A stretch of DNA of 64,000 bases from a virus: the IMG/VR virus record IMGVR_UViG_3300045988_080466. One strand, 5' to 3'. The translations under genes were made by a program, and so were the position numbers. The first letter of the stretch is position 1. Each line of letters starts with the position of its first letter. This document shows, in pieces, positions 5,239-62,294 of this stretch. Under the pieces are notes generated by a model. It saw only the letters and a program-made list of their open reading frames with translations. It ran no database searches and had not been told where the DNA came from.

Positions 5239-5239
5239 A

Positions 5240-8200
5240 ATGGCGTGTAAATATACTTTAAAAATAAATAGTACTGGAAAGGTTCTTACATTTAACTCCG
5301 AAAAAGAACTTGACAACTACCTACTATCTAACTACACTGAATTTGAAGGTATGGTCGACCATACCTTTAGATTTAGTAAAGACTACATAACTATGTTAGA
5401 TACAGAACAGGTAAAATCTCAAGATAAACTAGATAAAGATAGGAAACTTGCCTATGAAAAAGCTAAAGCAAGAAATGCTAAAAATGACGATACAATAGTA
5501 GTCAGAGGGCAAGGTGAAATGACTGATGTCATTGAAAATGAGGAAACATATTCTGACGGATTTATATCAGTTCTGAAATTTTTATCACGTCAAAGAGGCA
5601 CCAATGCGCCTCTTATTAACGCTTTCAGTAGGGAAGGGTACAAGAGGAACACCCGTATAGATAGGTCTCAAGGAAAGCCTGAGGATGTCTCTCCAGAAGA
5701 GTGGCTAAAACAAATAGATTCTTCAATTGACCAAGACTTTGAATATTGGGATTATTTACAAGAAATCGGACGAGGATTCCACTTAGTAATGGATACAGTT
5801 ATAAATTCCAACTTTGACATATCTGCTGATATGGTTGACTCTGTTATTAGCAAGAAGTTTGAGAGAGACTTTTTAGGGGGAAAGAATTTAAGTACTCTAA
5901 ATGGTGTATCGACTGGAGCATTAATGGACTTTATAAAAGGAATTACGGCTCTAAAGAAAAACATAATCCTTAACAGTGGAAGAGGAAGGAAATTCAAAAA
6001 ATTCTACACAGAATATGTAGTAGACCACGATGGTGGACCTGATGCAAAACTTAGAGGTAAGATTGACTTACTTGCAGTATTTGAGGATAACGAAGGCAAT
6101 CAAAGCGTTGAAATATATGACTTGAAACTTGCTACTAAACCACAAGATAGATGGGATGCTGATAAGAAAAATACTATTCAATATCAGCTTGGTTTCTACA
6201 AAAGAATGTTACAAGCCAAAGGAATTGCAGCAAGAAATATATCTACTAAAATTATCCCAGTTCTCATTGAAGGGGATAAAATACTCCACAAGATTGATAA
6301 AGTATCAGTCGGAGAACCAGAAGTTTATCTTCCTAATATTGGACAAAAAGCTAATATTGACGAAATAATTAAAATACCTATTGGTATAGAAAATTTATCT
6401 AATCCATTAGAAAATACAGTGTCAGAAAGAATGAGTAAGTTCTTCCCAATGAGTAAAATCAATCCTACTGATATTGTAGACTTTGATATGTTATTTGCTT
6501 CTCAAGTACATATTGATAAAAATACTGGAGAGTACTGGTTTAGAGATGTTACTAAATCAACTAATGAAAAGGGAGAAATAAGAAGAGCTACTAAAGAAGA
6601 AGCGGAAGCTGCATTTGAGGACTATCTAGTAAGAAAACTAGAGCATGATAACGATGTAACTCTCGCTATTACTAACAATCTTAAATATAATCTTGATAAG
6701 GTAAATGGCTTTGGAGGAAAGAACTTTAATCCTACAAGGACAGGTTTACAGATTGTTCCAGCTAATACATACGAACCTAAGCTTGGATTGTTTGAAGCAA
6801 ACTTATCCAAATACAAAAATGAGCCAGGATGGAACATAATTAGTAATGATGCTCTTACTAATATGAATGTTATTCTTCTTATTAATGAGACAAGAAAAGA
6901 AATGGATTTAATTTCTATTGCTTCTCATGACCTTAATAGTACTATTAATCTAGGTAAGGGTAATAATATTTTTGGAAGGTTTAAATCTGATAGAGAAGTG
7001 GAACTCGATAAACAAGTAATTAAAGCCACAGTCGGCAATGTGGAACTTATGAAACTGCTTTCTATTGCCAATGCTTTTCAAGAAACCGATTTGGGTTCTT
7101 ATACTATCGGGGAAATGAAGGTAGTTAATATTGGCAAGAGTGAATATCTTTCTTCCTATTTAAATCAAGAAAAAATAAATCATGCCTTCAATACTTTATC
7201 TGAATTATCTGGACAAAGTAAAGGAAACACATTGAAGTTTACTGATGAGTTTGATATAGCATGGAGAACCTTTAATAATATCATGAACTATGGAACCTAT
7301 GAAAATAGAGATAGACTTGATAAAATTGCTAAAACGTTATCAATAGATGGAGATATTACATCATTTGATAAACAAGCGAAGATGGACATCCTTACAAGAA
7401 TGTTCAAGGAACTTCAAGCTAGATATTTCTCTACTAATGCATCTGCTGATATTTCTAATCCTATTGCATATTTATTTTTACAAGTATCTAATGCTTTGGC
7501 TAAATATGGAAACACTACCATTGATATCTATAATGAAGAACTTTGGGCAAAGAACTTTGGTAATCTGGCAGAGCAGTGGAAAAGGGGAGAATTATTTAAT
7601 GGTACTTACTTAAATACTATTGATACAATCCCAATTGTAAAATCAGTTGCTCATAGATTGGCAGAAACCAACAGAAATATCACTAATTTATATGGTAATT
7701 ATAAGAACAAAGATAGGGCTATAACCAATAAGTTCTATCAGGAATCTGGACAAGGTTTCGTAGGGAAGACCATTATCAATGATTCAACAATTCGTTTTAA
7801 AAGATTACTTGACCAATCTGATTCTGGAAAGAGAAAGTTTATGGTTAAGAATCCGTATGATATGTCTACTGATTTAAATCCAGCAGAAAGAAACTATTTA
7901 AAATATTGGCTAGAGGATTTAAATAATAGAAGATATCCAGGACAGGATAGAGCAGAAGTTGGAGAAAGATACTTTGAAATACCTTTATTAAGAGGTTCCT
8001 CATTTTCTAAAATAACTAATGGTAAGAATCCTCTAGTTACTTATAAAGAAGATGGTTCTTTAGAAATGGTAAATCCAAGAATGACTACGACAGCTCAAGA
8101 AGAATATTTATCTACAGATGCTCTAAAGAATCTTGTAGAGATGTATAACGTATTCGATATTTCTAATTCAGTAGGAGGAAGAGAAAGACTTCTTTCCGAT

Positions 8201-9865
8201 ACTAATGGTAAACCTGAACAAACATACGAAACTAACCTTGAACACATTAAGGATATGTATGTGTTCTCCGATATTAGAAAGAAGGAAATGGATACAGTTC
8301 TTCCTGCTATTAATGCAGCAATTATTTCTCTTCAATTTACACAGAGACTTTCTAACAAGGATGCCCAAGCAACTATCGACTTCTTGAATGATTATATTAA
8401 GTCAGCAGTATTCGATGAATCTCTTATTGATAAAGAAAGTAGGGGAACGTTTAGAACTTTAGGAATGTTGAAGTCAGTATCTACTAAATTTATTCTTGGT
8501 TTTAACTACTTATCAGGAGCTAAAGAAACTATCACCGGATTCTTCAATCTTTATGAAAGAGCAGTAGCTAATAGCTTACTTGATAAAGATAAGATAGGAC
8601 TAAAGGATATGACTTCCGCTTATACTACTGTTTGGGTCGATTCTGTAAGACAGATAAGTACGATTACTATCCTAGAACATTTAAATTGGCAATATAGAAT
8701 GGCTAACGTGGATATGAACGCATTAGTCGATAGAATGAACTATGAAAAGACTGATGGATTCAGATTTAATGACAGAATGTTCTGGGCTAATAGAGCTCCC
8801 GACTTCTTATCAAGAATGACAATCCTCATTGGCTATATGAAGAAACATGGCTGCTATGATGCACATGAATATAAGAACGGAGAGGTAACTTACAATTGGA
8901 AAAAAGATAAGAGATTTAGTCTTCTTGCGAATCCAAATGCTGATACTAATTCATCTGAATGGCAATATCAAAGGTCTTTATATAATGCAATGATGGAAAC
9001 TTTCTTTGAAGAAAATTATAAACTTCCAAATGCTGACGGAACTTCGAGATTCTTATCAAGAGAAAAGGATTCAAGGGGAGTTTATAAAGAAGCTCTTCCT
9101 CAAGCATATACTACTCTTGAAGCTAATATGATAAAGCAAGAATCTGACAGCATATTCGGATATATGGACCACGATACTAAGTCTTTATATCTAAAGAAAG
9201 GAATGTTTATATTCCTTCACCAATTCCAGACTTTCTTGTCAGCAAAGAAAAATCAATACTTCCTAAAAAGAGGCACTTACGACCAAGGTCATTGGGTTCA
9301 GGTAACTGATGATGCAGGAAATAAGCTTTATTGGGATACTGTTCAAGACAACGAAGGTAACACCATTAGAGTTAAAACTACAGAAAATACTGGAGACCCA
9401 ATTGTGGATTGGCAAGGTAAAATTATGGAAGGAATTGCATGGTCACTAAGAGACTTATTTAACTTTACTAAGCCAGAGAGAATGAAAGATGCTTGGAGAG
9501 ACCCTGTAAAAAGAAGAAATCTCCTATTAGCTTTAGAAGATGGGGCTATTATAGGAATTATTTATCTAATGCTTGCTTTATTATTTGGAGATAAAGATGC
9601 AAAAGCTATGTCAAACACTGAACAAGCTATCGCAAGAATAGCAAGAAATGTAGGCGGAGAATTTAATATGTTTGCAATCTTTAATGGGGCTGTAGACTTT
9701 AAGATGCCTATGTATCAATTCTATAGTGGATTGTTCGAAGATGGAGTTAAAGTAGCATCCGGTGATATGCATGTATTAAGATTCTTTACTGATAATACTG
9801 GAGCATTCAGACCTCTTAAACCAACTGTTATAGATAACTTTAAAGCACCTAACGCTAACGAGTAA
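5240..9865 (+). CDS. giant (about 1540 aa) virion-type protein with RecB/Cas4-like PD-(D/E)XK motif set and C-terminal hydrophobic segment
   Basis: 4.6-kb ORF. The ORF track starts at TTG 5222, but ATG 5240 follows the upstream TAA directly. Motifs GKIDLL ... EIYDLK ... QYQLGFY (D / DxK / QxxxY). LLLALEDGAIIGIIYLMLALLFG lies near the C-terminus. Confidence 0.65.
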   Translation: MACKYTLKINSTGKVLTFNSEKELDNYLLSNYTEFEGMVDHTFRFSKDYITMLDTEQVKSQDKLDKDRKLAYEKAKARNAKNDDTIVVRGQGEMTDVIENEETYSDGFISVLKFLSRQRGTNAPLINAFSREGYKRNTRIDRSQGKPEDVSPEEWLKQIDSSIDQDFEYWDYLQEIGRGFHLVMDTVINSNFDISADMVDSVISKKFERDFLGGKNLSTLNGVSTGALMDFIKGITALKKNIILNSGRGRKFKKFYTEYVVDHDGGPDAKLRGKIDLLAVFEDNEGNQSVEIYDLKLATKPQDRWDADKKNTIQYQLGFYKRMLQAKGIAARNISTKIIPVLIEGDKILHKIDKVSVGEPEVYLPNIGQKANIDEIIKIPIGIENLSNPLENTVSERMSKFFPMSKINPTDIVDFDMLFASQVHIDKNTGEYWFRDVTKSTNEKGEIRRATKEEAEAAFEDYLVRKLEHDNDVTLAITNNLKYNLDKVNGFGGKNFNPTRTGLQIVPANTYEPKLGLFEANLSKYKNEPGWNIISNDALTNMNVILLINETRKEMDLISIASHDLNSTINLGKGNNIFGRFKSDREVELDKQVIKATVGNVELMKLLSIANAFQETDLGSYTIGEMKVVNIGKSEYLSSYLNQEKINHAFNTLSELSGQSKGNTLKFTDEFDIAWRTFNNIMNYGTYENRDRLDKIAKTLSIDGDITSFDKQAKMDILTRMFKELQARYFSTNASADISNPIAYLFLQVSNALAKYGNTTIDIYNEELWAKNFGNLAEQWKRGELFNGTYLNTIDTIPIVKSVAHRLAETNRNITNLYGNYKNKDRAITNKFYQESGQGFVGKTIINDSTIRFKRLLDQSDSGKRKFMVKNPYDMSTDLNPAERNYLKYWLEDLNNRRYPGQDRAEVGERYFEIPLLRGSSFSKITNGKNPLVTYKEDGSLEMVNPRMTTTAQEEYLSTDALKNLVEMYNVFDISNSVGGRERLLSDTNGKPEQTYETNLEHIKDMYVFSDIRKKEMDTVLPAINAAIISLQFTQRLSNKDAQATIDFLNDYIKSAVFDESLIDKESRGTFRTLGMLKSVSTKFILGFNYLSGAKETITGFFNLYERAVANSLLDKDKIGLKDMTSAYTTVWVDSVRQISTITILEHLNWQYRMANVDMNALVDRMNYEKTDGFRFNDRMFWANRAPDFLSRMTILIGYMKKHGCYDAHEYKNGEVTYNWKKDKRFSLLANPNADTNSSEWQYQRSLYNAMMETFFEENYKLPNADGTSRFLSREKDSRGVYKEALPQAYTTLEANMIKQESDSIFGYMDHDTKSLYLKKGMFIFLHQFQTFLSAKKNQYFLKRGTYDQGHWVQVTDDAGNKLYWDTVQDNEGNTIRVKTTENTGDPIVDWQGKIMEGIAWSLRDLFNFTKPERMKDAWRDPVKRRNLLLALEDGAIIGIIYLMLALLFGDKDAKAMSNTEQAIARIARNVGGEFNMFAIFNGAVDFKMPMYQFYSGLFEDGVKVASGDMHVLRFFTDNTGAFRPLKPTVIDNFKAPNANE

Positions 9866-9867
9866 AT

Positions 9868-9930
9868 GAAAAAAAATAAGGGCGCCAATCAAGTAGTTTT
9901 ACCTACCTGACTGACGCCCTTAAATTTTAT
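9868..9930. terminator. bidirectional hairpin terminator at the convergence of + and - transcription
   Basis: AAGGGCG (9878-9884) pairs with CGCCCTT (9915-9921), with an inner CAAGTAG/CTACCTG stem. An A-run lies upstream and TTAAATTTTAT downstream. It sits between convergent stop codons at 9865 and 9927. Confidence 0.6.
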
Positions 9931-10613: not shown

Positions 10614-10828
10614 TTCATGTAGTATTTTAGTTCATTAAGAACAAAAGTAGGGTCCAAATACGGCATCTTTTCCTTAATTTTGTTATATTGCTCGACAAGT
10701 TCTTTTTTGTCAGTTATTTTATCAGAAAACCCTAAGAAACCGTCACTGTCAGGCTTAAGAATAAGTCTGTGAATTTCACATGAAATTGCAAAGAGTATCG
10801 GGTCTGACGTCTCAAGATTGTTCATCAT
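10610..10828 (-). CDS. hypothetical protein
   Basis: Co-directional 72-aa ORF with 4-nt overlaps on both sides. Confidence 0.45.
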   Translation of the reverse strand: MMNNLETSDPILFAISCEIHRLILKPDSDGFLGFSDKITDKKELVEQYNKIKEKMPYLDPTFVLNELKYYMK

Positions 10829-11286
10829 ACAACATACGATTTTACTAAGTCGGAAATTTGTTTACCGTCTGCAGCAGGGAACTTATCTTTCATTCCTTTA
10901 ATTATTGTTCCCATATCCTTTTTTGGAATTGCAAGACTGTCGATTTTATCTTGTACCTTATAAATCAAAGCTAAGTCAAACAGACCCTTACGCAACTGCT
11001 CTTCTCCGGGAATTTCAGGTAAGAACTCATTTAGGATAAGAGATTCTTGCATCTCTATATCATACAAATCCTGTCTGCCTGCCATACGGTATTGTTCAGC
11101 ATTATCGATGCGCTGGTCTCTCAACTTCTTAATAATAGCAATCTCTGTTGCTTTATCAAGGGGTTTGGCGTTTTTCTGCGTTTCATGTACTAAGAACGCA
11201 GTTTTTATTGCTCTAAGAACTTCTGTGCGAGTTCTTGTTTTAGCTTTCATTGATTGTTTAATCAGTTCATCAATATCCTCTTTCAT
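10825..11286 (-). CDS. GatB/YqeY-domain protein
   Basis: Collinear with the YqeY pattern: IKQSMKAK..R..LR.IK ... IKKL.DQR.DNAEQYRMAGRQDL...E..IL.EFLP. Confidence 0.7.
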   Translation of the reverse strand: MKEDIDELIKQSMKAKTRTRTEVLRAIKTAFLVHETQKNAKPLDKATEIAIIKKLRDQRIDNAEQYRMAGRQDLYDIEMQESLILNEFLPEIPGEEQLRKGLFDLALIYKVQDKIDSLAIPKKDMGTIIKGMKDKFPAADGKQISDLVKSYVV

Positions 11287-11476
11287 TGTCTTCCAATATA
11301 TTTAAAATTATACCTCCTACACCCATCAACAATATGGCAGAGATACATACTCCAAACCATACATTAAGTGAGTATGCAAACACTAGAAGTAGTACCACTA
11401 AGGTTATACCTCCGAGCCCAATAGCTCCAAGTGCAAAAAATAGTGCCAATCGTTTTCGTAAATCTTCTTTATCCAT
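11270..11476 (-). CDS. small membrane protein (two hydrophobic helices)
   Basis: LALFFALGAIGLGGITLVVLLLVFA and VCISAILLMGVGGIIL hydrophobic stretches; co-directional. Confidence 0.45.
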   Translation of the reverse strand: MDKEDLRKRLALFFALGAIGLGGITLVVLLLVFAYSLNVWFGVCISAILLMGVGGIILNILEDNERGY

Positions 11477-11861
11477 TTTTCTTTATAGTATGTCTCCTCT
11501 TTATATTTTGAGCAGTACCACTATTCCAACGACCTTCTCTTACATAGGCTATATCAACATCAGATACTCTGGTCATTGCAGCATCACGCTCTTCATCAGT
11601 TTTGTAATGACCCATGTAGCTAACTCTTGATTCATCTTTAGGAGTGTTTCTTGGACTATCAAACATATGATATATAACTACTCCACAAGGAAGGTTTTCT
11701 GTTATGAAATCCATAGCCATTTTGTCTACTCCTTCATAATCACCTACTACGAAATTCTCGAAATCAGAATCATTGTAGTAGGCAGAGTAAATAGCTGGAA
11801 CGTAGTACTTCTTAAATTCTTCTTCTGTAATGTCTCTATGTCCGCTTATAAAATATATCAT
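11469..11861 (-). CDS. hypothetical protein, possible SLOG/DUF2493-like Rossmannoid
   Basis: MIYFISGHRD ... NFVVGDYEGVDKMAMDFI resembles the G-[ST]-R-D ... G..G.D..A pattern of phage SLOG-clade proteins. Recalled by eye only. Confidence 0.35.
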   Translation of the reverse strand: MIYFISGHRDITEEEFKKYYVPAIYSAYYNDSDFENFVVGDYEGVDKMAMDFITENLPCGVVIYHMFDSPRNTPKDESRVSYMGHYKTDEERDAAMTRVSDVDIAYVREGRWNSGTAQNIKRRHTIKKNG

Positions 11862-12412
11862 GGAACTATTTGTGCGTCTAAGTCTTTTTCAAAGACGTTA
11901 ATATTATACCAAGAAATTGCTTCAAGTATTCTATCTTCATGGTTAAATGCCCATTTGTATTTTGAAATATCTCTTATAGGAACCCATTGGATAGTTTTTA
12001 CTTCATTTTTCTCACCATCTCCATTCAATACAGCTTCCATAGAAGTAGATACATTATCTTTTCCGTATTTAAGAATGGTCATATAACGTAATGTTACATT
12101 GCCGTTATTACAGTGTTCTGGGTCTGTTTCAACTCCAAATAAAGCCCACTTAGATGGGTCAATTTTGACTCCAGTTTCCTCAAATGCTTCACGAGAACAA
12201 GCTTCTTCTGCTTTCTCCATATCCAAGAAACCACATGGACAATTCCAGTAACCTTGGAAATCGGGAGTTCCTTCTCCTCTTTGGTTAGCCAAGACACACC
12301 ATTCGCCCTTGATTTTACAAAATGCGAATGCAGCAACTGCACAATATCGACCAGACCAAAGTGTTTTACCAGCGTGCTCTCCTTCTTTAATTGTATAACT
12401 CCAATTTCTCAT
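11858..12412 (-). CDS. Nudix hydrolase
   Basis: Nudix box GFLDMEKAEEACSREAFEETGV (Gx5Ex7REx2EExG). Confidence 0.8.
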   Translation of the reverse strand: MRNWSYTIKEGEHAGKTLWSGRYCAVAAFAFCKIKGEWCVLANQRGEGTPDFQGYWNCPCGFLDMEKAEEACSREAFEETGVKIDPSKWALFGVETDPEHCNNGNVTLRYMTILKYGKDNVSTSMEAVLNGDGEKNEVKTIQWVPIRDISKYKWAFNHEDRILEAISWYNINVFEKDLDAQIVP

Positions 12413-12840
12413 TTATGTCTTCTTTTTGTTTTAGTTGTAACTTCCTTCTCGGATACTTCCAGAGGATTGTACTTTAGTTCATTGTAGGGTGTTAATGCAG
12501 TGCCTCCAATTCCTACTAAAGTCTTTTTATCATACTCTGATTTATATATAGATAGTACTTTATCAGTTTTTCTTTTGTATGCAATATACACTGGAATATT
12601 CTTTTTTATGCAGGTTTCAAGTTCGTTCTTGGTTCCTCTAGTCATGTCTTCGACTTTAGTTCCCCAATCAAACTCATTTATAATAAACACTGCAATATCA
12701 GAATCAGTTAATAAAGAACTCTCATATTTAGTTCCCATTTTCCAGTGGTTTGGCTCATAACCAAGAGAGTCCAGAAATATTTCTACTTCTGGAACTAGGT
12801 TGGCATGTTGCATACTATAAGATACATATGCTTTATTCAT
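12409..12840 (-). CDS. hypothetical protein, nucleoside 2-deoxyribosyltransferase/TIR-like fold suspected
   Basis: KAYVSYS ... SDIAVFIINEFDWGTKVEDMTRGTKNELETCIKKNIPVYIAY resembles the NDT-like D..G...E..A...PV layout. Start moved to ATG 12840, an 8-nt overlap with the nadD stop. Confidence 0.3.
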   Translation of the reverse strand: MNKAYVSYSMQHANLVPEVEIFLDSLGYEPNHWKMGTKYESSLLTDSDIAVFIINEFDWGTKVEDMTRGTKNELETCIKKNIPVYIAYKRKTDKVLSIYKSEYDKKTLVGIGGTALTPYNELKYNPLEVSEKEVTTKTKRRHK

Positions 12841-13393
12841 CTTTATAAAGATTAAATCGGTGAATGTATTGGCTAATAGCTTTAGGTACAAGAGGGTAAA
12901 TTTGTTTCTTGTCCTTAACCAAATACCTAATCATAGTAGAGCTTACGTCAAAAGTACAACTAATATACCCATCCACCTTCGCCTTGAATGAACTGTTGGC
13001 TCTATTTACTGCAATCAGCTTAAAGTTTTCTAATATCCATTCTCCTTCCTTCCAATTTGCAACATCATCTACAATGTCTGCACCTACAATCAGATAAAGT
13101 TCTTCGTTTGGATAATATTCCTTCAAAAGTTGTAGGGTTTGATAGGAATAGTGAGGTTCTGGAGTGTAATAGTCAATACTAGATATTGTGCAATTATCAA
13201 TTTCATCAATAGCCAGTTGTGTCATAAAACACCGGTGTTGAAATTCAGTTGCTTCGCGGTCTTTCCACACATTCTGCATAGTTGGAACCACCACTACTTC
13301 GTCAACCAAGTTATCATTTAGTGCTGATGTAATCATGTACAAATGACCCATGTGGATTGGGTCAAATGTTCCTAATAAAAATCCTACTTTCAT
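12833..13393 (-). CDS. nadD: nicotinate/nicotinamide mononucleotide adenylyltransferase
   Basis: GTFDPIHMGH (T/HxGH motif) and C-terminal SSTMIR (ISSTxIR). Start set at MKVGFLLG (ATG 13393), directly after the upstream stop. Confidence 0.85.
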   Translation of the reverse strand: MKVGFLLGTFDPIHMGHLYMITSALNDNLVDEVVVVPTMQNVWKDREATEFQHRCFMTQLAIDEIDNCTISSIDYYTPEPHYSYQTLQLLKEYYPNEELYLIVGADIVDDVANWKEGEWILENFKLIAVNRANSSFKAKVDGYISCTFDVSSTMIRYLVKDKKQIYPLVPKAISQYIHRFNLYKDE

Positions 13394-13395
13394 TT

Positions 13396-13956
13396 TTAAA
13401 ATAATGTTATTTCTTTTGTTGTTATATCGTAGCAATCTATAATTGCTTTTAATCCATTCGGTTTTATTTCTCTGGTTCCGATTCCAGCAAAGTCTAATCG
13501 TAAAACCGGGGTTTCACTATGTTTCCATTCTGAAAGTTCAATGTCATAGGTAAACCAACGGCTCCTTGATTGGTCAAATACAAATACATCCTTATCAGAA
13601 TCAATTGCCATTTGTACTGCCCAACCTGTTCCTCCCTTAACAGTGTTCCCATTAAATCCTTCTGCAATAGCATATATTGCATCAGAGTTTTTGACTTGAC
13701 ACCAATTTCTGGAAAGCAAAAACATATACTTTTCAAAGTTTTGCCTTTTTAAAGTATTGTTAGCTCTATATACAGCACACTTACCTTCTTCATATGCGCT
13801 ATTGCTTATTGGAAAATTTCCTCTTGGAGTTTTATTAATATAGTAGTAGTGACGAACTACTTCAAGACCATAGACTCTACCTATAATATCCCACATAGTG
13901 TCACTACCATCAGCTCCTCCAGAGTGCATAATATAATTAGTCAACAAAGTATCCAC
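13396..13956 (-). CDS. hypothetical protein, SLOG/DprA-like Rossmannoid suspected
   Basis: MHSGGADGSDTMW (GGAxGxD glycine-rich loop) and KGGTGWAVQMA. Confidence 0.35.
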   Translation of the reverse strand: MDTLLTNYIMHSGGADGSDTMWDIIGRVYGLEVVRHYYYINKTPRGNFPISNSAYEEGKCAVYRANNTLKRQNFEKYMFLLSRNWCQVKNSDAIYAIAEGFNGNTVKGGTGWAVQMAIDSDKDVFVFDQSRSRWFTYDIELSEWKHSETPVLRLDFAGIGTREIKPNGLKAIIDCYDITTKEITLF

Positions 13957-14395
13957 GAGAGTCCAATTCTTTTGATAAAAAACTAATAGCTTCTACACTG
14001 TATCGTTCGGTCAACTCCTCTATTTCATTGAGTAAATCATTAACCAAATCAGATACACCACAGAACCCTATATTTCCCACGAAATCGACAAGATTTTTAA
14101 TAAGTTCGGGGTCATCTACCTCGAACTTCATTTCATCCTCGAAATCATCAGGAAGATAATCGTCGTCAGCATTATAGTATCTTTCTTGAACATATACTTC
14201 CACCAAGTCAAGAGTGGCATGGACTACTTCCTCTTCAAGTCTAACAGTCAATCTGAATGCTTGAGAATCATCGTCCATTTTCTCAACTATCATATAGAAA
14301 GATTCTTCCCATGTATAATCATGGTCAGATACAAGATAGTTGGCTTCTTTTAGAGCAACTAATAACTGCTCATATATTTCGTCAATCGTTTTCAT
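13937..14395 (-). CDS. hypothetical acidic protein
   Basis: 152-aa ORF very rich in D/E (e.g. YYNADDDYLPDDFEDEMKFEVDDPE), lying between the SLOG-like gene and nadE. Confidence 0.5.
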   Translation of the reverse strand: MKTIDEIYEQLLVALKEANYLVSDHDYTWEESFYMIVEKMDDDSQAFRLTVRLEEEVVHATLDLVEVYVQERYYNADDDYLPDDFEDEMKFEVDDPELIKNLVDFVGNIGFCGVSDLVNDLLNEIEELTERYSVEAISFLSKELDSRGYFVD

Positions 14396-15293
14396 ATTTT
14401 TCTCGTGTTATATAAATGGGAGCTTTCTTACGTTTAAACTCTGATGCTGTATGACGTTTGATAATCTTATGAACGACTTCTCTTCCAAGTTCTTGTTCTA
14501 AAGAATCTTGAAGTTTATCATTCTCTGGAGAAGCTTTACAAATAAGAGTTTGTAATACTCTATCAACGTCATAATAGGTCCTGGCACCTATCTGCTCCAA
14601 GTCACTATTACTAATGCCGAGACCGTCAGTAGGAGTAAGAGCTACAGACTCTCTAATAGCTTGGATTTTATCCACATCTTCACCATCGCTCATCATTGTG
14701 TAGTAATCGCAAATCCATCTGGCTAACCTATAAACCTCAGTCTTCCACAGGTCTTGAATTGGGTCAAAGTCGCCTACATCACCATGAATAGTCCAGAATC
14801 CAAGCTGATATTCAGTTTGATTATCTGTACTCATTACTAATCCTTTATGGCGACTAGCTATATCATATAGATACATCATTCTGCACCTAGCTTGAAGATT
14901 ACCATTAGCAATAGGAGTTCTACTAGGCATTTCTTCTAGTTCATCGAGATAGTAAGAATTAGCCATATTGACATCACCTGCATCAGCACAGGCATCAAAC
15001 AAAGCTGCACGATAGGAACGTTCAAGTCTGTAAACACTAAATTCATTACAGAAGGCTTCTCCTACATGTACAGAAGTAGCGAACTCATCACTTTTATTCT
15101 TAATAGGAAGACTTCTTCCTATAAGAGGAATACCAGTCTTCTTACTAACCTCATGGCATATGGCAGCAACAACAGTGGAGTCAATTCCTCCACTGATGCC
15201 TAATACCATTGCTTTCAAACCATTAGAAGTAACATAATTTGCTGTTTCTTCTACTAAGGTATTAAATACCTTTTCATAATTTAATTCTTTCAT
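14382..15293 (-). CDS. nadE: NAD+ synthetase (ammonia-dependent type)
   Basis: PP-loop LGISGGIDSTVVA. Collinear with NadE: STDNQTEYQLGFWTIHGD, TPTDGL, C-terminal EFKRKKAP. Confidence 0.85.
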   Translation of the reverse strand: MKELNYEKVFNTLVEETANYVTSNGLKAMVLGISGGIDSTVVAAICHEVSKKTGIPLIGRSLPIKNKSDEFATSVHVGEAFCNEFSVYRLERSYRAALFDACADAGDVNMANSYYLDELEEMPSRTPIANGNLQARCRMMYLYDIASRHKGLVMSTDNQTEYQLGFWTIHGDVGDFDPIQDLWKTEVYRLARWICDYYTMMSDGEDVDKIQAIRESVALTPTDGLGISNSDLEQIGARTYYDVDRVLQTLICKASPENDKLQDSLEQELGREVVHKIIKRHTASEFKRKKAPIYITREKYEND

Positions 15294-15451
15294 TGTTTTA
15301 CTCGTTTAAGATAATAAACTATTACCCGACTGGAAACTCTGCCTCCTGATAAGAACTTAACTATAGTTGCGACTAATTCCCAACCGTCATCGCCCAGTCG
15401 ATTAAGCTCTTCGCAGGTAATGTCTGTTTTTTCTAAATATTCAAATTTCAT
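15290..15451 (-). CDS. small hypothetical protein
   Basis: Start moved to ATG 15451 (ATGA overlap with the pncB stop). GDDGWELVATI is reminiscent of DUF4177-type small proteins. Confidence 0.4.
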   Translation of the reverse strand: MKFEYLEKTDITCEELNRLGDDGWELVATIVKFLSGGRVSSRVIVYYLKRVKQ

Positions 15452-16608
15452 AGTCCAAGTTCTGCTAAACAAGAGTTAACTTCCATTGCACGTCCCGTAT
15501 GTTTGCCTTCATCATCAGATAGCTTTACACAGTCATATACCGGCTGATTAGAGTTCATCTGACAAGATGTAAGTTTCATAACAATGTTAGAGGGTTTAAA
15601 TCCAGTGTCATTGGTAAGGTTTGTACCTATACCGAACGATGCTCTAATTCTAGTCATACAATAGAGAGCAATATCTTCAGCCTTTTCAAAATCCAAAGCA
15701 TTACTAAAGATAATGGTTTTCGTAGTTGGGTCTATGCCCAATTCTTTATAGCGAGCAATCATTTTATTTACAAATTCATACTCGTCTCCAGAATCACATC
15801 GTACTCCGTCAAACAACTTAGCTTGTTTACGTGAGAAGTTCTTGATGAATACATTCGATGTGTAAGTATCGGTAAGAGCTATTCCCAAGTCTCCGTCATA
15901 GACATTTACCCAATTCTCAAGAGCCATATAATTAGCTTGTTTGTAACCGTACATAGCGCCATGAAACATAAACCATTCATGTGGATGTGTTCCCATTGGT
16001 TTCATGTCATACTTCATCGCAAAGTAACAGTTGGAAGTTCCGGTACAATAGATTGATTTCTCTTTAATATACTTAATAACTTCTTCTTGTATATTGTAAG
16101 AGAATCTTCTACGAGTTCCAAATTCAGAGAAATAAATTCCTGATTGATTGGAACGTTTGATTTTACTTTCCAATTTATTAAGCATTACAGGAATGTTGAC
16201 CTTATAGCCTAACATCCTATTTCTTAATTCTGAAACCATTGCAAGAATAGGAACTTCATAAAGAGAAACTTTATAAAGATAATCCTTCGCTATAATGTGA
16301 AGATGCTTTTCTTCATCCAAGAAGATTTGTACTTTACTTGGGTTAAATGTGAATTGAGACAACCATTCCCAGTAATGTCTTGGGATGAATCGAATAGAGT
16401 TCATAAACTCAAATTCATCACTTGTAAGTCTTACTTGAGCAAGGTTATATAACTCAATACGAAGTTGCTCAACAAACTCTTCTGTGTATTCAGTATTATC
16501 ACGGTCTTTAAACTCAAAAGTTCCTACCGCTTGTGGAAACAACTTCATGTAAGCATAAGAAGTTGTAAACTTGTATAAATCTGTATCTAAAATTGATTTA
16601 ATTATCAT
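15448..16608 (-). CDS. pncB: nicotinate phosphoribosyltransferase
   Basis: End-to-end collinearity with PncB: ILDTDLYKFT, FGTRRRFS, GTSN, PMGTHPHEW, LGIALTDTY, DSGD, FSNALD, SFGIGTNLT, KLSD..GK. Confidence 0.9.
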   Translation of the reverse strand: MIIKSILDTDLYKFTTSYAYMKLFPQAVGTFEFKDRDNTEYTEEFVEQLRIELYNLAQVRLTSDEFEFMNSIRFIPRHYWEWLSQFTFNPSKVQIFLDEEKHLHIIAKDYLYKVSLYEVPILAMVSELRNRMLGYKVNIPVMLNKLESKIKRSNQSGIYFSEFGTRRRFSYNIQEEVIKYIKEKSIYCTGTSNCYFAMKYDMKPMGTHPHEWFMFHGAMYGYKQANYMALENWVNVYDGDLGIALTDTYTSNVFIKNFSRKQAKLFDGVRCDSGDEYEFVNKMIARYKELGIDPTTKTIIFSNALDFEKAEDIALYCMTRIRASFGIGTNLTNDTGFKPSNIVMKLTSCQMNSNQPVYDCVKLSDDEGKHTGRAMEVNSCLAELGL

Positions 16609-17213
16609 TTCTCTATTGGTTGATAAATGTTTAACTTATTTTCTTTTATAAATTCTTGGAGTGCTGTTCCACCATCAATAGATGCAATTCCTGGGAGATA
16701 TACTGAAAGTCTATCCCAAATAGGTTGCAAGTTCTTAATTGTGTTAAGTACACAATAATCTCCTGCAACTCCACAAATTACAATTTCTGATTCATTCGAA
16801 AGGTATATGTCAGCTCTACTATCGTAAATATCATCAAGTGAATAAGTATAATGGCTTTTCCTGTTTGGGTCACGTTTAAGGTCTGGAAAAGCCCCATATT
16901 CCTCTTTAAACAGTCCTTTCTCAATTACATCGTATCGGAGATTATTATTCCTACAAGCTGTAAGAAGTAAATCATTAATTGCCGCACCTTGGGAATATTG
17001 GACACAATGAACTGGCCACTCTCCTCCATTTTCTTTAAAAGAGGGATGAAAGAAAGCGTGCCAGTCCACAGTAAACCACACTCTATCAAAATGCTCTTTA
17101 TACATTAATTCTTCTATATTCCATAGAGCGGGAGTAGCCCCTTTTACATATAAAGAGCCACTCTCTAAGCAGAAATCATTCTGCATATCAACTACTATAA
17201 GTATTTTACTCAT
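16605..17213 (-). CDS. pncA: nicotinamidase (isochorismatase family)
   Basis: ILIVVDMQNDF, the metal-site-like DWH...H and VHCV, and catalytic Cys context GVAGDYCV. Confidence 0.8.
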   Translation of the reverse strand: MSKILIVVDMQNDFCLESGSLYVKGATPALWNIEELMYKEHFDRVWFTVDWHAFFHPSFKENGGEWPVHCVQYSQGAAINDLLLTACRNNNLRYDVIEKGLFKEEYGAFPDLKRDPNRKSHYTYSLDDIYDSRADIYLSNESEIVICGVAGDYCVLNTIKNLQPIWDRLSVYLPGIASIDGGTALQEFIKENKLNIYQPIEK

Positions 17214-17398
17214 CGACTCCAGCTACTAAATATTCCTACAATTGCAACAATAGCCAACCATAAGGCTATCGGAATCCATAATGGGCTTAAGACCCACCAC
17301 CAAGACCAAGCTATGACACCACATAGCTTAAGAACAATAAATACTATAAGAAGAACTCCACCTATGCCAATTCCTCCACTACTGTTACTATTACTCAT
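17210..17398 (-). CDS. small membrane protein
   Basis: 62 aa, two hydrophobic Trp-rich helices (GGVLLIVFIVLKLCGVIAWSWWWVLSPLWIPIALWLAIVAIVGIF). Confidence 0.5.
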   Translation of the reverse strand: MSNSNSSGGIGIGGVLLIVFIVLKLCGVIAWSWWWVLSPLWIPIALWLAIVAIVGIFSSWSR

Positions 17399-18090
17399 AA
17401 TTCAATTATTAAAGGTTCAAACGATTGAATGTATCTCTCGTCTACTAAAGACACATTTGCCATTTTCATATCATCTAAAGTCATCAATCTGTGTTCTCCT
17501 GAATGAATGTGTCCACAGAAAGCATACTTTGGATGTTTTCTCATAATTTCATCAGCCAACCAAGGATTACCTGCATCCTCTCTAGTCCACGACTGATGAA
17601 TAATACCTAATCCACACAGCTTAGGAGCATCGTGTGAGATTACTATATCACAATGTTCGGGCATTGTGGAGTACGCTTCTATAAGAGTTTTCTCCTCATA
17701 CATATATGCCCAATTTCCAAATATCTTGCAATATGGAGTTCCCCAAATTGTGTATTCAGTTCCATCTTTATAATCAATGTAAGTATATGACTCATTATCG
17801 AGCATTACTAACTTCCCATCAGTGGGAGTATAAAGAAGGGAATTTTTGGAAAGAGTATTCTGATATATAGACGCTAATGCGAAGTCATGATTTCCGCCTA
17901 CCATAAATACTTTTTCACAAGGTAAATCTTTTACCCATTGAGCAAATTCATGACTAAGCCATTTCTTGCTTTGTGGGATATTTCTTTGCATCTTTAGTGG
18001 GGTAATATCCCCACAGATTAAGTAAATATCACACTCTTCTTTTATTTCTGGAAGAATCCCATGTAAGTCTGATAATGCGCCAAATTTCAT
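17395..18090 (-). CDS. calcineurin-like metallophosphoesterase
   Basis: SDLHG, CGDITP, GGNHDF, SHDAP and GHIHSGEH motifs in canonical order. Confidence 0.8.
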   Translation of the reverse strand: MKFGALSDLHGILPEIKEECDIYLICGDITPLKMQRNIPQSKKWLSHEFAQWVKDLPCEKVFMVGGNHDFALASIYQNTLSKNSLLYTPTDGKLVMLDNESYTYIDYKDGTEYTIWGTPYCKIFGNWAYMYEEKTLIEAYSTMPEHCDIVISHDAPKLCGLGIIHQSWTREDAGNPWLADEIMRKHPKYAFCGHIHSGEHRLMTLDDMKMANVSLVDERYIQSFEPLIIEL

Positions 18091-19624: not shown

Positions 19625-19801
19625 TTAATCATTATATGATATTATCTTGTAATATACGGTACTACCTACCCAACGCCAACCCAGATAATTTACTGGAACC
19701 CATGCAGGTTTACTAAGCAAATCTCTAAATTCTAATGGTGTTAGATTACGTACTATATCTGTTTGTGGTGATGCTCCCTCAAGACTTATTAATACCTTCA
19801 T
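19625..19801 (-). CDS. small hypothetical protein (58 aa, below ORF-track cutoff)
   Basis: Hand-translated MKVLISLEGASPQTDIVRNLTPLEFRDLLSKPAWVPVNYLGWRWVGSTVYYKIISYND. It fills the otherwise empty 19612-19779 gap and overlaps the upstream gene by 23 nt. Confidence 0.3.
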   Translation of the reverse strand: MKVLISLEGASPQTDIVRNLTPLEFRDLLSKPAWVPVNYLGWRWVGSTVYYKIISYND

Positions 19802-20684
19802 GTTTTAACCAGTCTTGGAAGTACCACAATTGTCCACATCCTCCACCAATATCATCCTGACCAGCAGGATTGAATACTCTTGTGGAGAAACCTAATTCGC
19901 AGAGTCTTCTGTTAAAGTCTCTAATAAGACGAATTTGTCTATCAATAGAATTCTTTACAGTTTCATCCTTTTCACAAATTACAGAAAGAGTAGTTTCCCA
20001 AACATCGGTTCGAAAGAGTTTGTACAGTCTCCTTGCGTCTTCTTCTGTATCATTTCCTTCATGTACACAGTAATTGAAGAATGGTTTTCTTCCTGTGTTC
20101 GCTGCCCAAAATTCTCCCGCAGCAGCAATCTGGCGGAGAGTACAAGTCTTAGTCGGAATTAATTTTGCTCTAGCTTCATCAGTTGATTCATGTACAGAAA
20201 ACTGCAATCCGACTTGAGGTATTCTCTTGGAAAGCTCAATAAACTCTGACATTGCATGATACAATGTAGATGGAGCAGATGTAGATACTAATAATTGAGC
20301 ATTTGGATACAAATCGTGTAAAGACTCAATAGCTCGCTCCAAATTGATACAATTCAGAAATGGCTCTCCCATACTCATGAACATAATTTGGAACTTTTCA
20401 ATGTCTTTAGTATCACAATCAATAGTACTTAAAACAGTAGTTACTTGTTCTACTATTTCATGCCAATCAAGATTCCTTACAAAGAACTTTCCTGTTCCAC
20501 AGAATGTACAGCCAACCGGACATCCAGACTGTACAGAACAGCAAATTACTGTTCTCTTCGCGTATTCTCCATAACGATAAAGGACTGCTTCTGCAATTCC
20601 TTTTTTCGTTACTGCACTAGCTCCCCATTCAAATACAAACTTCTTGACATTAGTGTCAGAAGATTCAAAAATCTTATATTCCAT
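19779..20684 (-). CDS. RlmN/Cfr-family radical SAM methyltransferase (short N-terminus)
   Basis: Collinear with RlmN: ICCSVQSGCPVGCTFCGTG (CxxxCxxC plus upstream Cys), MSMGEPFLN, VSTSA, FSVHESTDEARAKLIP, and the C-terminal GQDDIGGGCGQL (RlmN GDDIDAACGQL). Confidence 0.8.
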   Translation of the reverse strand: MEYKIFESSDTNVKKFVFEWGASAVTKKGIAEAVLYRYGEYAKRTVICCSVQSGCPVGCTFCGTGKFFVRNLDWHEIVEQVTTVLSTIDCDTKDIEKFQIMFMSMGEPFLNCINLERAIESLHDLYPNAQLLVSTSAPSTLYHAMSEFIELSKRIPQVGLQFSVHESTDEARAKLIPTKTCTLRQIAAAGEFWAANTGRKPFFNYCVHEGNDTEEDARRLYKLFRTDVWETTLSVICEKDETVKNSIDRQIRLIRDFNRRLCELGFSTRVFNPAGQDDIGGGCGQLWYFQDWLKHEGINKS

Positions 20685-20686
20685 TT

Positions 20687-21271
20687 TTAACCTCTTAAAT
20701 TTCTTTTAGTGATTATTTCCTTTAATTGCTGCCAAGATACTGGTGTGTAATCATTATTATCTACACCAACATCATATTGATTTGGGACTAATTTATCTTC
20801 AAAAGGAGTTTTCTTTCCTTTTTCAGTATGAATGTGTCCATACAATTGCCAACTTCCTCTATGAGAGCCATCCCATGTAATCATAGGATAGTGACTCATA
20901 AAGAGTTGTTGGTTATTACATTCTTCATCACCTGTTATAGTAATCATCATCTGTCTTTCAACAGCTTCGAACCCATTTTCTGGGATGTATTTCAGCTTAT
21001 CATGATTACCTAATATGAGGTATTTATAGCCGTTTAGTTGAGGTAAAATTTTCTCCCAACGTGTCTTTTGACCAAAGCAAAAATCGCCCAATATGAAGAC
21101 TGTATCGTCCCACTGGACTACCTTATTCCAATTTAGTATGAGTTGTCGATTCATTTCGTCAGCAGACTCAAACGGACGACTACAATACTTAATTATATTT
21201 GCGTGGTCAAAGTGACAATCAGAAGTGAAAAATACCTTATTACAGTCAAATTTATTTGTCAGATTTGCCAT
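20687..21271 (-). CDS. metallophosphoesterase
   Basis: FFTSDCHFDH, ILGDFCF, LGNHD and GHIHT motifs. Confidence 0.75.
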   Translation of the reverse strand: MANLTNKFDCNKVFFTSDCHFDHANIIKYCSRPFESADEMNRQLILNWNKVVQWDDTVFILGDFCFGQKTRWEKILPQLNGYKYLILGNHDKLKYIPENGFEAVERQMMITITGDEECNNQQLFMSHYPMITWDGSHRGSWQLYGHIHTEKGKKTPFEDKLVPNQYDVGVDNNDYTPVSWQQLKEIITKRNLRG

Positions 21272-62281: not shown

Positions 62282-62294
62282 TGTAGGAGCAACA

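Follow-up and report, generated by a model that had tools for sequence, protein, structure and literature searches.

A predicted deamidating route to NAD+ in a phage gene array

A gene array in a virus (IMG/VR record IMGVR_UViG_3300045988_080466) raises the question of whether a phage could rebuild NAD+ from nicotinamide by the Preiss-Handler route, and what benefit this would bring in infection. The whole stretch of DNA analyzed, 64,000 nt, is referred to here as the window. Ten chained genes at 11469-17213 of the window are all on the minus strand (Table 1). With junctions measured from the nearest in-frame ATG starts, 4-nt overlaps were found for PncA/PncB, PncB/g60, g60/NadE, g160/Nudix and Nudix/g130, alongside overlaps of 14 nt for NadE/g152, 20 nt for g152/g186 (GTG start) and 8 nt for NadD/g160 (g160 ATG 12840), and a 2-nt gap for g186/NadD (NadD ATG 13393). 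These measurements agree with the original description of a co-directional ten-gene chain joined by a 2-nt gap or 4-20-nt overlaps. The chain has no operon limits, as co-directional overlapping genes run on at both sides, upstream into tm62 and a metallophosphoesterase gene, and downstream into tm68, YqeY and dNMP kinase genes. Since the whole of 9927-64000 is a single minus-strand block, ending at a strong terminator (9877-9922), tight chaining by itself is ordinary for this phage; the real evidence for a module is conservation across rearranged genomes.

The array sits inside a replication and nucleotide-metabolism block that encodes a dNMP kinase, ThyX, an anaerobic RNR and a DNA polymerase. 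The suggestion that the phage is crAss-like was borne out by the replication module; judged by these genes, it is a crAss-like gut phage, with Bacteroides/Phocaeicola as the predicted hosts. Related contigs are mostly 84-187 kb. Elsewhere, the window encodes an ADP-ribosylglycohydrolase and an RNA-repair pair.

Table 1. Genes of the array and its conserved neighbors (window positions)
Feature	Position	Strand	Remarks
Metallophosphoesterase, calcineurin-like	17395..18090	-	PF00149 7.8e-10; conserved upstream neighbor, module membership uncertain
PncA, nicotinamidase, 202 aa	16605..17213	-	Predicted: nicotinamide + H2O -> nicotinate + NH3
PncB, nicotinate phosphoribosyltransferase, 386 aa	15448..16608	-	Predicted: nicotinate + PRPP -> NaMN
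g60, small DUF4177/Sp36-like protein	15290..15472	-	Probable start ATG 15451; variable accessory gene
NadE, single-domain (NH3-dependent type) NAD+ synthetase, 303 aa	14382..15293	-	Predicted: NaAD + ATP + NH3 -> NAD+
g152, acidic protein	13937..14395	-	Variable accessory gene; close lineage only
g186, possible SLOG/DprA-like Rossmannoid protein	13396..13956	-	Variable accessory gene; SGGADGSD motif
NadD, nicotinate-mononucleotide adenylyltransferase	12833..13435	-	Likely start ATG 13393, 186 aa; predicted: NaMN + ATP -> NaAD
g160, Rossmann-like, resembling TIR / nucleoside 2-deoxyribosyltransferase	12409..12891	-	Likely start ATG 12840, 143 aa
Nudix hydrolase, 184 aa, ADP-ribose pyrophosphatase clade	11858..12412	-	Inferred: ADPR -> AMP + ribose-5-phosphate
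g130, SLOG-superfamily (YspA-like) protein	11469..11861	-	Conserved Nudix-gene partner; homologues and Foldseek
YqeY-like protein	10825..11286	-	PF09424 2.3e-24; conserved downstream neighbor, module membership uncertain

Four enzyme families cover nicotinamide to NAD+

The assignment of four array genes to PncA, PncB, NadD and NadE was first made from motifs, all of which were found in the translations (PncA: VVDMQNDF, DWH, GDYCV; PncB: LDTDLYKFT, FGTRRRF, HPHEW, DSGD; NadD: GTFDPIHMGH, SSTMIR; NadE: SGGIDS). In profile-HMM searches, curated NCBIfam cut-offs were passed by PncB (TIGR01514, 430 bits, cut-off 269.6; PRK05321, 448 bits, cut-off 379), NadD (TIGR00482, 142 bits, cut-off 112) and NadE (TIGR00552, 131 bits, cut-off 63.7). 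PncB also carries the Pfam domains NAPRTase and NAPRTase_N, and NadE, which matches PF02540 (1.2e-40), keeps the PP-loop and is without a glutaminase domain. The top PDB match of NadD was B. subtilis NadD 1kam (2.8e-25); among 18 further matches, nearly all carry the name NadD. PncA matched Pfam Isochorismatase (1.3e-8); its best NCBIfam match, PRK11609 nicotinamidase, lay below the cut-off (45.7 bits, cut-off 174), but 10 of 10 PDB matches were nicotinamidases, and both the Asp-Lys-Cys triad (D9, K99, C154) and the Asp/His/His metal site (D50, H52, H69) were invariant in a 34-member family alignment. No named cellular close relative of PncA appeared among its best 120 matches. Judged by these profile and PDB matches and the PncA alignment, the four are bona fide PncA, PncB, NadD and NadE, and the proposal of a full deamidating path between nicotinamide and NAD+ is upheld at the level of enzyme families.

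A stand-alone Nudix hydrolase of the ADP-ribose type

The Nudix protein matched PF00293 (5.9e-13), and the NCBIfam models that it matched best were NtrR (NF050029), an ADPR-responsive repressor, and the Nudix part of NadM-Nudix. Searched against structures, the family profile matched Shewanella NrtR 3gz8 (9.9e-15), 2fml and Francisella NadM-Nudix 2qjt (4.3e-11). The Nudix box, originally described as full, is complete for E-x7-REUxEExGU, with the REx2EE residues intact, but its G and E stand one residue closer together than in the canonical box (GFLDME). Pro98, 16 residues past the box, is invariant; a proline at this position marks the ADPRase subfamily (PMC6856373). The SQPWPFPxS NADH signature was not found in the protein sequence. 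With NrtR and NadM-Nudix structures as best profile matches and the proline at +16, the findings support the earlier suggestion that the separate Nudix protein takes the ADPR pyrophosphatase role fused to NMNAT in NatV/NadM, and we infer ADPR specificity. PADLOC gave only a weak match of the Nudix protein to a candidate-system model (PDC-S07, E 3.8e-8) and no match for the other nine array proteins.

The five-gene core is conserved across rearranged loci

A PncB relative is encoded by 406 IMG/VR stretches. PncA, NadE, NadD and the Nudix protein accompany it in ~70 of the 80 best loci, and the five-gene core was found again in most of the ~100 related viral loci examined, including loci with the orders Nudix-PncA-PncB-NadE-NadD and PncA-Nudix-PncB-NadE-NadD. 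The core recurs even when reordered and therefore is a selected module. Of its neighbors, the metallophosphoesterase gene adjoins PncA in 67 loci and the YqeY-like gene adjoins the module in 69, including the rearranged L078, L083, L086, L087 and L090. The module has also decayed by deletion (L102, L109, L053/L118, L121, L123 and PncA-NadE chimeras) and thus is dispensable in some settings.

The chromosomal PncB of Bacteroides/Phocaeicola is 67-69% identical to the phage protein. A captured host operon was considered and rejected, since none of the other array genes lies within 8 kb of the chromosomal pncB.

Accessory genes

The accessory gene g130 was found in 59 of 92 loci and is still beside the Nudix gene in the deletion variant L121. 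Its 340 homologues include one named YspA in nr, and Foldseek with the AF2 model (pLDDT 90.1) gave DprA, LOG and YgdH as top matches by probability and TM-score (probability 0.94-1.0, TM 0.55-0.61, E 0.008-0.1). The TIR/deoxyribosyltransferase-like g160 and the DprA-like g186 are weaker candidates than the SLOG protein g130. For g160, which has 110 remote relatives, Pfam TIR_2 matched 2 of 46 scanned; the AF2 model (pLDDT 89.6) weakly resembled SPARTA, SARM1 and ThsB TIR domains (TM 0.36-0.46, E at least 0.005) and viral nucleoside 2-deoxyribosyltransferases (best E 1.3e-3). The g186 protein matched phrog_768 'DprA-like' (1.9e-9), with no Pfam or PDB sequence match and no significant hhalign similarity to the g130 family, and its gene comes and goes among near-identical contigs. 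We detected g60, which matched DUF4177 (4.3e-5) and Sp36_fam (8.7e-8), both under the cut-off, in 29 of 92 related loci (about one-third), and g152 had no match in Pfam, NCBIfam, PHROG or PADLOC. The similarities behind the accessory fold assignments (Foldseek E at least 1e-3) and the Nudix substrate are weak.

A candidate NAD+ recycling module

We consider it somewhat probable that the array provides self-sufficient, phage-borne recycling of pyridine nucleotides, with NAD+ upkeep, especially under NADase defences, as the likeliest benefit. The direct basis for this reading is enzyme family membership, catalytic residues, and the conservation and co-occurrence of the module. There is good support for the predicted biochemistry, which comprises NAD+ formation from nicotinamide and the removal of ADP-ribose, and substrates would flow as follows. 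PncA would turn nicotinamide, which every NAD+-cleaving enzyme releases, into nicotinate, which PncB would join to PRPP to give NaMN; NadD would adenylate NaMN to NaAD, and the single-domain NadE would convert NaAD and ammonia to NAD+. The stand-alone Nudix protein would split ADP-ribose, the second cleavage product, into AMP and ribose-5-phosphate, from which host enzymes could regenerate the ATP and PRPP spent by the route. Molecules derived from ADP-ribose may be ligands or substrates of the SLOG protein, and possibly also of the TIR/deoxyribosyltransferase-like proteins. Expressed within the replication and nucleotide-metabolism block of a crAss-like Bacteroides/Phocaeicola phage, the array would hold up the NAD+ pool in infection, above all under depletion by host TIR, SIR2 or other NADase defences, as a functional analogue of NARP2 made from the deamidating pathway.

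The counter-defence part of this reading is suggested by context: the nicotinamide-entry enzyme, the ADPR-type Nudix protein, the SLOG partner and TIR/NDT-like genes, and the presence of the ADP-ribosylglycohydrolase and the RNA-repair pair in the same window. Against it, a four-step route that consumes PRPP and two to three ATP for each NAD+ is slower and more expensive than NARP1 or NARP2, and the host has a PncB of its own and probably the remaining enzymes as well. The setting is one of replication and nucleotide-metabolism genes, not an obvious early anti-defence island, PADLOC is near-silent on the array, the module has been lost by deletion in several relatives, and PncA falls under its curated cut-off.

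A possible, though less likely, explanation is that the array is a set of auxiliary metabolic genes, fed by the niacin and nicotinamide abundant in the gut, that supplies NAD+ for phage replication and, once the host is shut off, for its energy metabolism, whether or not an NAD+-depleting defence is at work. The surrounding nucleotide-metabolism genes, the host-like PncB and the dispensability of the module fit such general supply, and Li et al., 2024 read similar clusters chiefly as independent NAD+ synthesis complementing the host (PMC11662467). However, the window shows no sign of a phage NAD+ sink, and the only DNA ligase found there is ATP-dependent and so is not one; the route begins at nicotinamide, a breakdown product; and the constant link to an ADPR-type Nudix protein and a SLOG protein fits clearing of NAD+-cleavage products rather than net synthesis. 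General supply and counter-defence are not mutually exclusive.

It is quite improbable that the last two steps run in the Francisella-type order, with NadE amidating NaMN to NMN before adenylylation to NAD+. NadE matched the Francisella entry 3fiu, which we take to be an NMN synthetase, almost as well as its top PDB match, the canonical H. pylori NadE 1xng (63.7 vs 69.7 bits), and PncA-PncB-NadE-NadD stand in that reaction sequence; the adenylyltransferase, however, is clearly of the NadD family, closest to NaMN-preferring bacterial NadD structures and not to Francisella's NadM type, and gene order differs between lineages. Least likely is that the Nudix and SLOG proteins, perhaps with the TIR-like one, serve mainly to destroy or sequester ADP-ribose-derived messengers or toxins while the NAD+ enzymes play a secondary part: according to a prediction by Iyer et al., 2022, SLOG and Nudix domains of viruses act against ADPR-derived signals, and this pair is left alone in L121, but the fold assignments are weak, and conservation within the module is highest for the four biosynthetic enzymes, which are present without g130 or g160 in distant loci.

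Comparison with known NAD+ systems

With this gene set, the phage probably could refill NAD+ destroyed by host defences. The novelty originally claimed for this was overstated, as Li et al., 2024 described pncB-nadD-nadE clusters in gut 'NAD-jumbo phages' of Bacteroidota hosts, mentioned phage-encoded pncA in passing and speculated on counter-defence (PMC11662467). Those phages share with the present one the clustered genes, gut origin and Bacteroidota hosts, but have genomes >200 kb, whereas this phage is crAss-like by its replication genes. Their three-gene cluster, as described, is entered at nicotinate and the array at nicotinamide via PncA; a Nudix gene is absent from the main text of that paper (PMC11662467), while the array is fixed to an ADPR-type Nudix gene and a SLOG gene. 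In the literature we found no such set described in crAss-like phages, nor this exact gene set.

Precedents for NAD+ restoration in the face of NADase defences are NARP2 or KVP40 NadV-NatV (Nampt + NMNAT-Nudix) and NARP3 (Osterman et al., 2024; Lee et al., 2017; PMC13464706). As predicted for the array, NARP2 and the Vibrio phage KVP40 pair take nicotinamide to NAD+ by classical salvage with a NadM-type Nudix ADPR pyrophosphatase. NARP2, however, needs two steps via NMN and has its Nudix domain fused to NMNAT, whereas the array would use four via nicotinate, NaMN and NaAD with a free-standing Nudix protein; NARP2 defeat of NADase defences was demonstrated experimentally, and the array is known here from its genes. 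The label of a third route is out of date, as a paper of 2026 already describes NARP3 (PMC13464706). NARP1 (Adps + Namat) and NARP3 (PnuC + NadR) share the proposed role of phage NAD+ restoration in infection, but work through ADPR-PP and imported nicotinamide riboside, respectively, by unrelated chemistry and with proteins of which none is in the array.

Bacterial nrtR-pncA-pncB-nadD-nadE operons with a Nudix-family member have long been known, for example in Clostridium acetobutylicum (Rodionov et al., 2008, PMC2330246). These NrtR salvage-I operons have the same four enzymes beside a Nudix-family protein of the same clade. NrtR, however, is a repressor with a C-terminal DNA-binding domain and a usually degenerate Nudix box, in contrast to the stand-alone phage protein with its intact box, and the array is viral, with the chromosomal pncB of Bacteroides/Phocaeicola lying outside any such operon.

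An array predicted to encode a complete route from nicotinamide to NAD+

The ten ORFs of the array, all on the minus strand within 11469-17213 of the window, are ordered in the direction of transcription as PncA, PncB, g60, NadE, g152, g186, NadD, g160, Nudix and g130, where g-numbers denote accessory ORFs. With the nearest in-frame ATG starts, the junctions comprise overlaps of 4, 4, 4, 14, 20, 8, 4 and 4 nt and a single 2-nt gap, bearing out the chained, co-directional arrangement of the original prediction. The same overlapping packing is found upstream, through a 62-aa membrane ORF to a metallophosphoesterase, and downstream, where a membrane ORF of 68 aa, YqeY and a dNMP kinase follow. 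Since the packing runs on at both flanks, the array is not a delimited operon. A terminator-like, T-rich hairpin with a 20-bp stem (9877-9922) lies exactly where the two opposed strand blocks of the window meet (plus, 135-9865; minus, from 9927 onward); except for this terminator, a scan of 9-21 kb for promoters and terminators gave no more sites than shuffled sequence did.

Features of the window discussed in the text
Feature	Coordinates	Strand	Remarks
YqeY-like protein	10825-11286	-	PF09424
Small membrane ORF	11270-11476	-	68 aa; likely two-helix
g130	11469-11861	-	
Nudix hydrolase	11858-12412	-	
g160		-	start probably ATG 12840
NadD	12833-13435	-	start probably ATG 13393
NadE	14382-15293	-	303 aa
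PncB	15448-16608	-	
PncA	16605-17213	-	first gene transcribed
Small membrane ORF	17210-17398	-	62 aa; likely two-helix
Calcineurin-like metallophosphoesterase	17395-18090	-	
Radical-SAM protein	19779-20684	-	
Calcineurin-like metallophosphoesterase	20687-21271	-	
Polynucleotide kinase-phosphatase (PNKP)	27677-28591	-	AAA_33 and HAD_PNKP
RNA ligase	29567-30940	-	phrog_968
Phage DNA ligase	32150-33340	-	PF01068; ATP-dependent type, not NAD-dependent
Anaerobic ribonucleotide reductase	37373-39583	-	
ADP-ribosylglycohydrolase	45903-46709	-	PF03747, 8.8e-34; phrog_6572
Radical-SAM protein	47008-47928	-	
Ferritin/rubrerythrin-like protein	61706-62404	-	

Three of the four enzyme assignments were upheld by profile score and the fourth, PncA, by its catalytic triad and metal site. 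PncB reached 430 bits against the NCBIfam equivalog TIGR01514 (cut-off 269.6) and contains both the N-terminal (PF17767) and the catalytic (PF04095) domain, NadD scored 142 bits against TIGR00482 (cut-off 112), and NadE scored 131 bits against TIGR00552 (cut-off 63.7); all three also have the expected Pfam domains. The NadD translation includes the motifs GTFDPIHMGH and SSTMIR (family rule, (H/T)xGH and ISSTxxR), and nearly all of its PDB matches are named NadD, the nearest being the Bacillus subtilis enzyme (1kam, 2.8e-25). NadE carries the SGGIDS PP-loop and consists of one NAD_synthase domain of 303 aa without a glutaminase domain, suggesting that ammonia is the nitrogen donor and that the enzyme is of the ammonia-dependent type. 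Its top PDB match, Helicobacter pylori 1xng, is followed almost level by Francisella 3fiu, which we take to be an NMN synthetase; given these near-equal scores, the sequence is compatible with a preference for either NaAD or NaMN.

PncA is the weakest of the four by score (PRK11609, 45.7 bits, below the curated equivalog cut-off of 174), and its lineage is divergent, with mostly metagenomic relatives. Nevertheless, it has the predicted active site of a nicotinamidase. The triad D9, K99 and C154 aligns with nicotinamidase structures and is invariant in a family alignment (n = 34) extending down to 38% identity, as are the metal ligands D50, H52 and H69, with H56 nearly so. An Asp/His/His metal site (DxH ... 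H) sets nicotinamidases apart from other isochorismatase-like hydrolases. All ten PDB matches are nicotinamidases; together with the invariant residues, this argues against a generic isochorismatase.

A free-standing Nudix hydrolase predicted to cleave ADP-ribose

The Nudix box (E-x7-REUxEExGU) is intact, with a G-to-E spacing one residue below canonical, and E66, R74, E75, E78, E79 and G81 are invariant in the family. Also invariant is P98, exactly 16 residues past the end of the box (residue 82); a conserved proline at this distance is a marker of ADP-ribose pyrophosphatases (rule quoted in PMC6856373). A profile built from 12 diverse phage homologues gave as top PDB matches the NrtR Nudix domains 3gz8 (9.9e-15) and 2fml, and also matched the Francisella NadM-Nudix protein 2qjt (4.3e-11). 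NrtR and NadM Nudix domains form a clade that binds and hydrolyses ADP-ribose (PMC2330246). Unlike NrtR, the phage protein has no DNA-binding domain, and the NADH-pyrophosphatase signature SQPWPFPxS is absent. On these grounds we read it as a predicted active ADP-ribose pyrophosphatase, in agreement with the role first guessed for the separate Nudix gene.

Accessory proteins

Among the accessory proteins, g130 is represented by 340 homologues, of which most lie on phage-sized contigs and one bears the name YspA in its source; it has no Pfam match and no PDB sequence match. A Foldseek search with its AlphaFold2 model (pLDDT 90) ranked DprA, LOG and YgdH highest in both probability and TM-score, though these hits are weak (TM 0.55-0.61, E at least 0.008); g130 is probably a member of the SLOG superfamily. 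For g160, 110 remote relatives were found, two of the 46 scanned matched Pfam TIR_2, and the model (pLDDT 89.6) is weakly similar to TIR domains and to viral nucleoside 2-deoxyribosyltransferases. The sole match of g186 is a DprA-like PHROG, and database searches with g152 and with g60, a small DUF4177-like ORF, gave no informative match. Searches of the PDB with g130, g160 and g186, as single sequences and as profiles, gave nothing significant, nor did hhalign comparisons among the three families, and Pfam matches of the accessory proteins at E up to 10 were noise only. These tentative assignments fit the NAD+/ADP-ribose-centred domain network described in viruses (Iyer et al., 2022).

Conservation, origin and turnover of the module

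Relatives of PncB were found on 406 IMG/VR stretches and in 13 of 50,697 GenBank phage records, none of the 13 being a named crAss-like phage. A survey of the viral loci for co-occurrence found PncA, PncB, NadE, NadD and Nudix all together in about 70 of the best 80. In close lineages the order is PncA-PncB-NadE-NadD-(g160)-Nudix-g130; in distant ones (PncB 57-61% identical) it is Nudix-PncA-PncB-NadE-NadD or PncA-Nudix-PncB-NadE-NadD. This persistence of the five core genes despite rearrangement is the strongest evidence that selection keeps them as one functional unit, with the Nudix gene as part of it. Two jumbo phages carry the set in part: in Agrobacterium phage Atu_ph07 (locus L018), a 6-kb stretch holds PncB, a PncA-like gene without annotation and a gene annotated as ADP-ribose pyrophosphatase, and in the 735-kb phage LR756501 (L020), PncB, NadE and PncA lie within 8 kb.

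The module is in erosion in places. Related loci lack PncA and PncB (L102), PncB and NadE (L109), or everything from NadD through g130 (L053, L118); Nudix and g130 alone remain in L121, and L123 is another natural deletion variant. Contigs with such natural deletions include IMGVR 3300045988_104686, _113097, _023747 and _026306. Three database proteins bearing both isochorismatase and NAD_synthase domains (P0276, P0295, P0317), considered as Rosetta-stone PncA-NadE fusions, are chimeras made by in-frame deletion, in which the N-terminus of PncA runs into the C-terminus of NadE and PncB is removed. NadE occurs as two alleles of 303 aa (the window) and 334 aa (L002-L017 and L093-L107) with 62-65% identity, in otherwise near-identical contigs (93-100% identity of the flanking genes), a sign of recent recombination inside the module.

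Mis-binned bacterial DNA was rejected as the source of the array, since crAss-like replication genes flank it and it is found again on about 100 viral contigs. Capture of a host operon was likewise rejected: the phage PncB shares 67-69% identity with its chromosomal counterparts in Bacteroides and Phocaeicola, but the other module genes are absent within 8 kb of the chromosomal pncB. No named cellular close relative was among the top matches of PncA. With a host-like PncB that lacks module neighbours in the chromosome and a PncA without such a relative, the origin of the module, as judged from sequence comparison, is mosaic.

A crAss-like phage of a poorly sampled lineage

The replication genes indicate a crAss-like phage. 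DNA polymerase I of the window shares 42-51% identity with its counterparts in crAss001, cr111_1, cr108_1 and IAS virus and 60% with that of an unannotated 117-kb human faecal phage, and the primase matches crAss-like phages of Bacteroides, Flavobacterium and Cellulophaga. Related contigs measure 84-187 kb, compared with 64 kb for the window, and one distant locus is on a 212-kb contig; the jumbo phages in which an NAD+ gene cluster was described (Li et al., 2024) have genomes above 200 kb. No PHROG matched any of three very large plus-strand ORFs in 135-9865 (575, 1127 and 1547 aa), and the one searched against GenBank phages (1127 aa) gave nothing beyond a weak match to MT835470; presumably they encode virion or tail proteins, from a crAss-like lineage that has been little sampled. 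The two radical-SAM proteins, the anaerobic ribonucleotide reductase and the ferritin/rubrerythrin-like protein represent anaerobe-adapted metabolism. The ADP-ribosylglycohydrolase, about 29 kb from the array, is a further gene of the NAD+/ADP-ribose network in the same phage.

Relation to known NAD+ reconstitution pathways

The array corresponds to none of the known phage NAD+ reconstitution pathways (NARP1, NARP2 and NARP3), whose defining proteins are absent. None of the ten proteins contains the domains of NARP1 (PRPP-synthetase-like Adps and Nampt-like Namat), and no match to the PnuC transporter or the NadR-like kinase/adenylyltransferase of NARP3 was above threshold. NARP2 combines Nampt with an NMNAT that is usually fused to Nudix, whereas the phosphoribosyltransferase of the array is a NAPRTase equivalog, its adenylyltransferase is NadD, and Nudix is a separate gene; the functional parallel is that the array likewise would pair nicotinamide salvage with a NadM-type Nudix. 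In gene content the array parallels bacterial NrtR-associated pncA-pncB-nadD-nadE operons.

The closest earlier description is that of gut jumbo phages with Bacteroidota hosts, in which pncB, nadD and nadE are clustered on the phage genome as they are here, pncA is also mentioned, and counter-defence is suggested (Li et al., 2024, PMC11662467). The novelty is therefore more modest than first claimed, phage-encoded NAD+ reconstitution or salvage itself being already known. What stands as new is the complete deamidating route with a free-standing predicted ADPR pyrophosphatase and a probable SLOG partner in crAss-like phages, a combination that we did not find described. The viral NAD+ synthesis enzymes in Iyer et al., 2022 are NadV, NadM and NadR only, with the terms PncA, PncB, NadD and NadE absent, and Osterman et al., 2024 make no mention of the Preiss-Handler route. 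Top-ranked literature matches did not mention crAss-like phages or Crassvirales with NAD-pathway genes, and no experimental test of this deamidating route as an anti-defence pathway was found in the literature searched.

Proposed working and purpose of the module

Any NAD+-cleaving enzyme releases nicotinamide and ADP-ribose. PncA, PncB, NadD and NadE would convert nicotinamide via nicotinate, NaMN and NaAD to NAD+, using up PRPP, ATP and ammonia, while the Nudix protein would split ADP-ribose into AMP and ribose-5-phosphate, which host enzymes could return to the ATP and PRPP pools. This biochemical reading is well supported, and we consider it very probable.

For the purpose of the module, we infer counter-defence with moderate confidence. 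Depleting NAD+ is one of the major ways in which bacteria resist phages, and three routes by which phages rebuild it have been demonstrated, mostly in phages that infect Enterobacteriaceae and Vibrio. The main rival is that the module sustains NAD+ in general, which is compatible with a counter-defence role. The route starts from nicotinamide and not from a de novo intermediate, which favours counter-defence, as do the tie to a predicted ADPR-specific Nudix and to a probable SLOG gene, the NARP2 and NARP3 precedents, and the presence in the window of an ADP-ribosylglycohydrolase and a PNKP/RNA-ligase pair; T4-like RNA repair pairs of this kind are usually read as an answer to tRNA-cleaving defences. 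On the other side, the route is long and costly, the host owns at least PncB, the genes lie within a replication and nucleotide-metabolism block, and some relatives do without the module. A narrower metabolic purpose, NAD+ supply for a phage NAD-dependent ligase, is unsupported, as the DNA ligase is of the ATP type; the sole such ligase found in the window is thus not an NAD+ sink, which we count for counter-defence.

In its fullest form, the counter-defence reading would make the five-gene core and its probable SLOG partner a fourth phage NAD+ reconstitution pathway, restricted to Crassvirales-like phages of Bacteroides and Phocaeicola and able to recycle the two products that host NADases release. 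The TIR/deoxyribosyltransferase-like and SLOG proteins would contribute a new activity, by destroying ADPR-derived immune signals or by feeding further NAD+ fragments into the route, and whether a phage has or has lost the module would partly decide which Bacteroidales strains of the gut these very abundant phages can infect. We consider this fullest reading possible but less likely than not.

In the human gut, crAss-like phages and Bacteroidales are the dominant pair of phage and host. If the module works like the demonstrated pathways, the NAD+ arms race would be widened to this pair, a virus could mobilise the ordinary four-step deamidating pathway as one unit, and the natural deletion variants would be ready-made controls. 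The module would also bear on the metabolism of niacin and nicotinamide in the gut, since the PncA activity of bacteria affects the host's NAD+ supply. As a mere general metabolic booster, it would be one more case of a known class of auxiliary genes; a demonstration of counter-defence in a Bacteroidales/crAss system would raise the interest of the finding.

Genes adjoining the array

The 62-aa and 68-aa membrane ORFs that flank the array on either side are kept in close relatives and are too small for known niacin or nicotinamide-riboside transporters. The metallophosphoesterase next to the 62-aa ORF is a conserved gene upstream of PncA in 67 related loci, and a role as an ADPR or cyclic-ADPR phosphohydrolase is conceivable. 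It was rejected as a counterpart of the 'phage phosphatase' that a preprint adds to the NARP1 pathway in its extended form, an enzyme that appears to be a Macro-domain protein. The YqeY-like gene adjoins the core even in distant, reordered loci (L078, L083, L086, L087 and L090).
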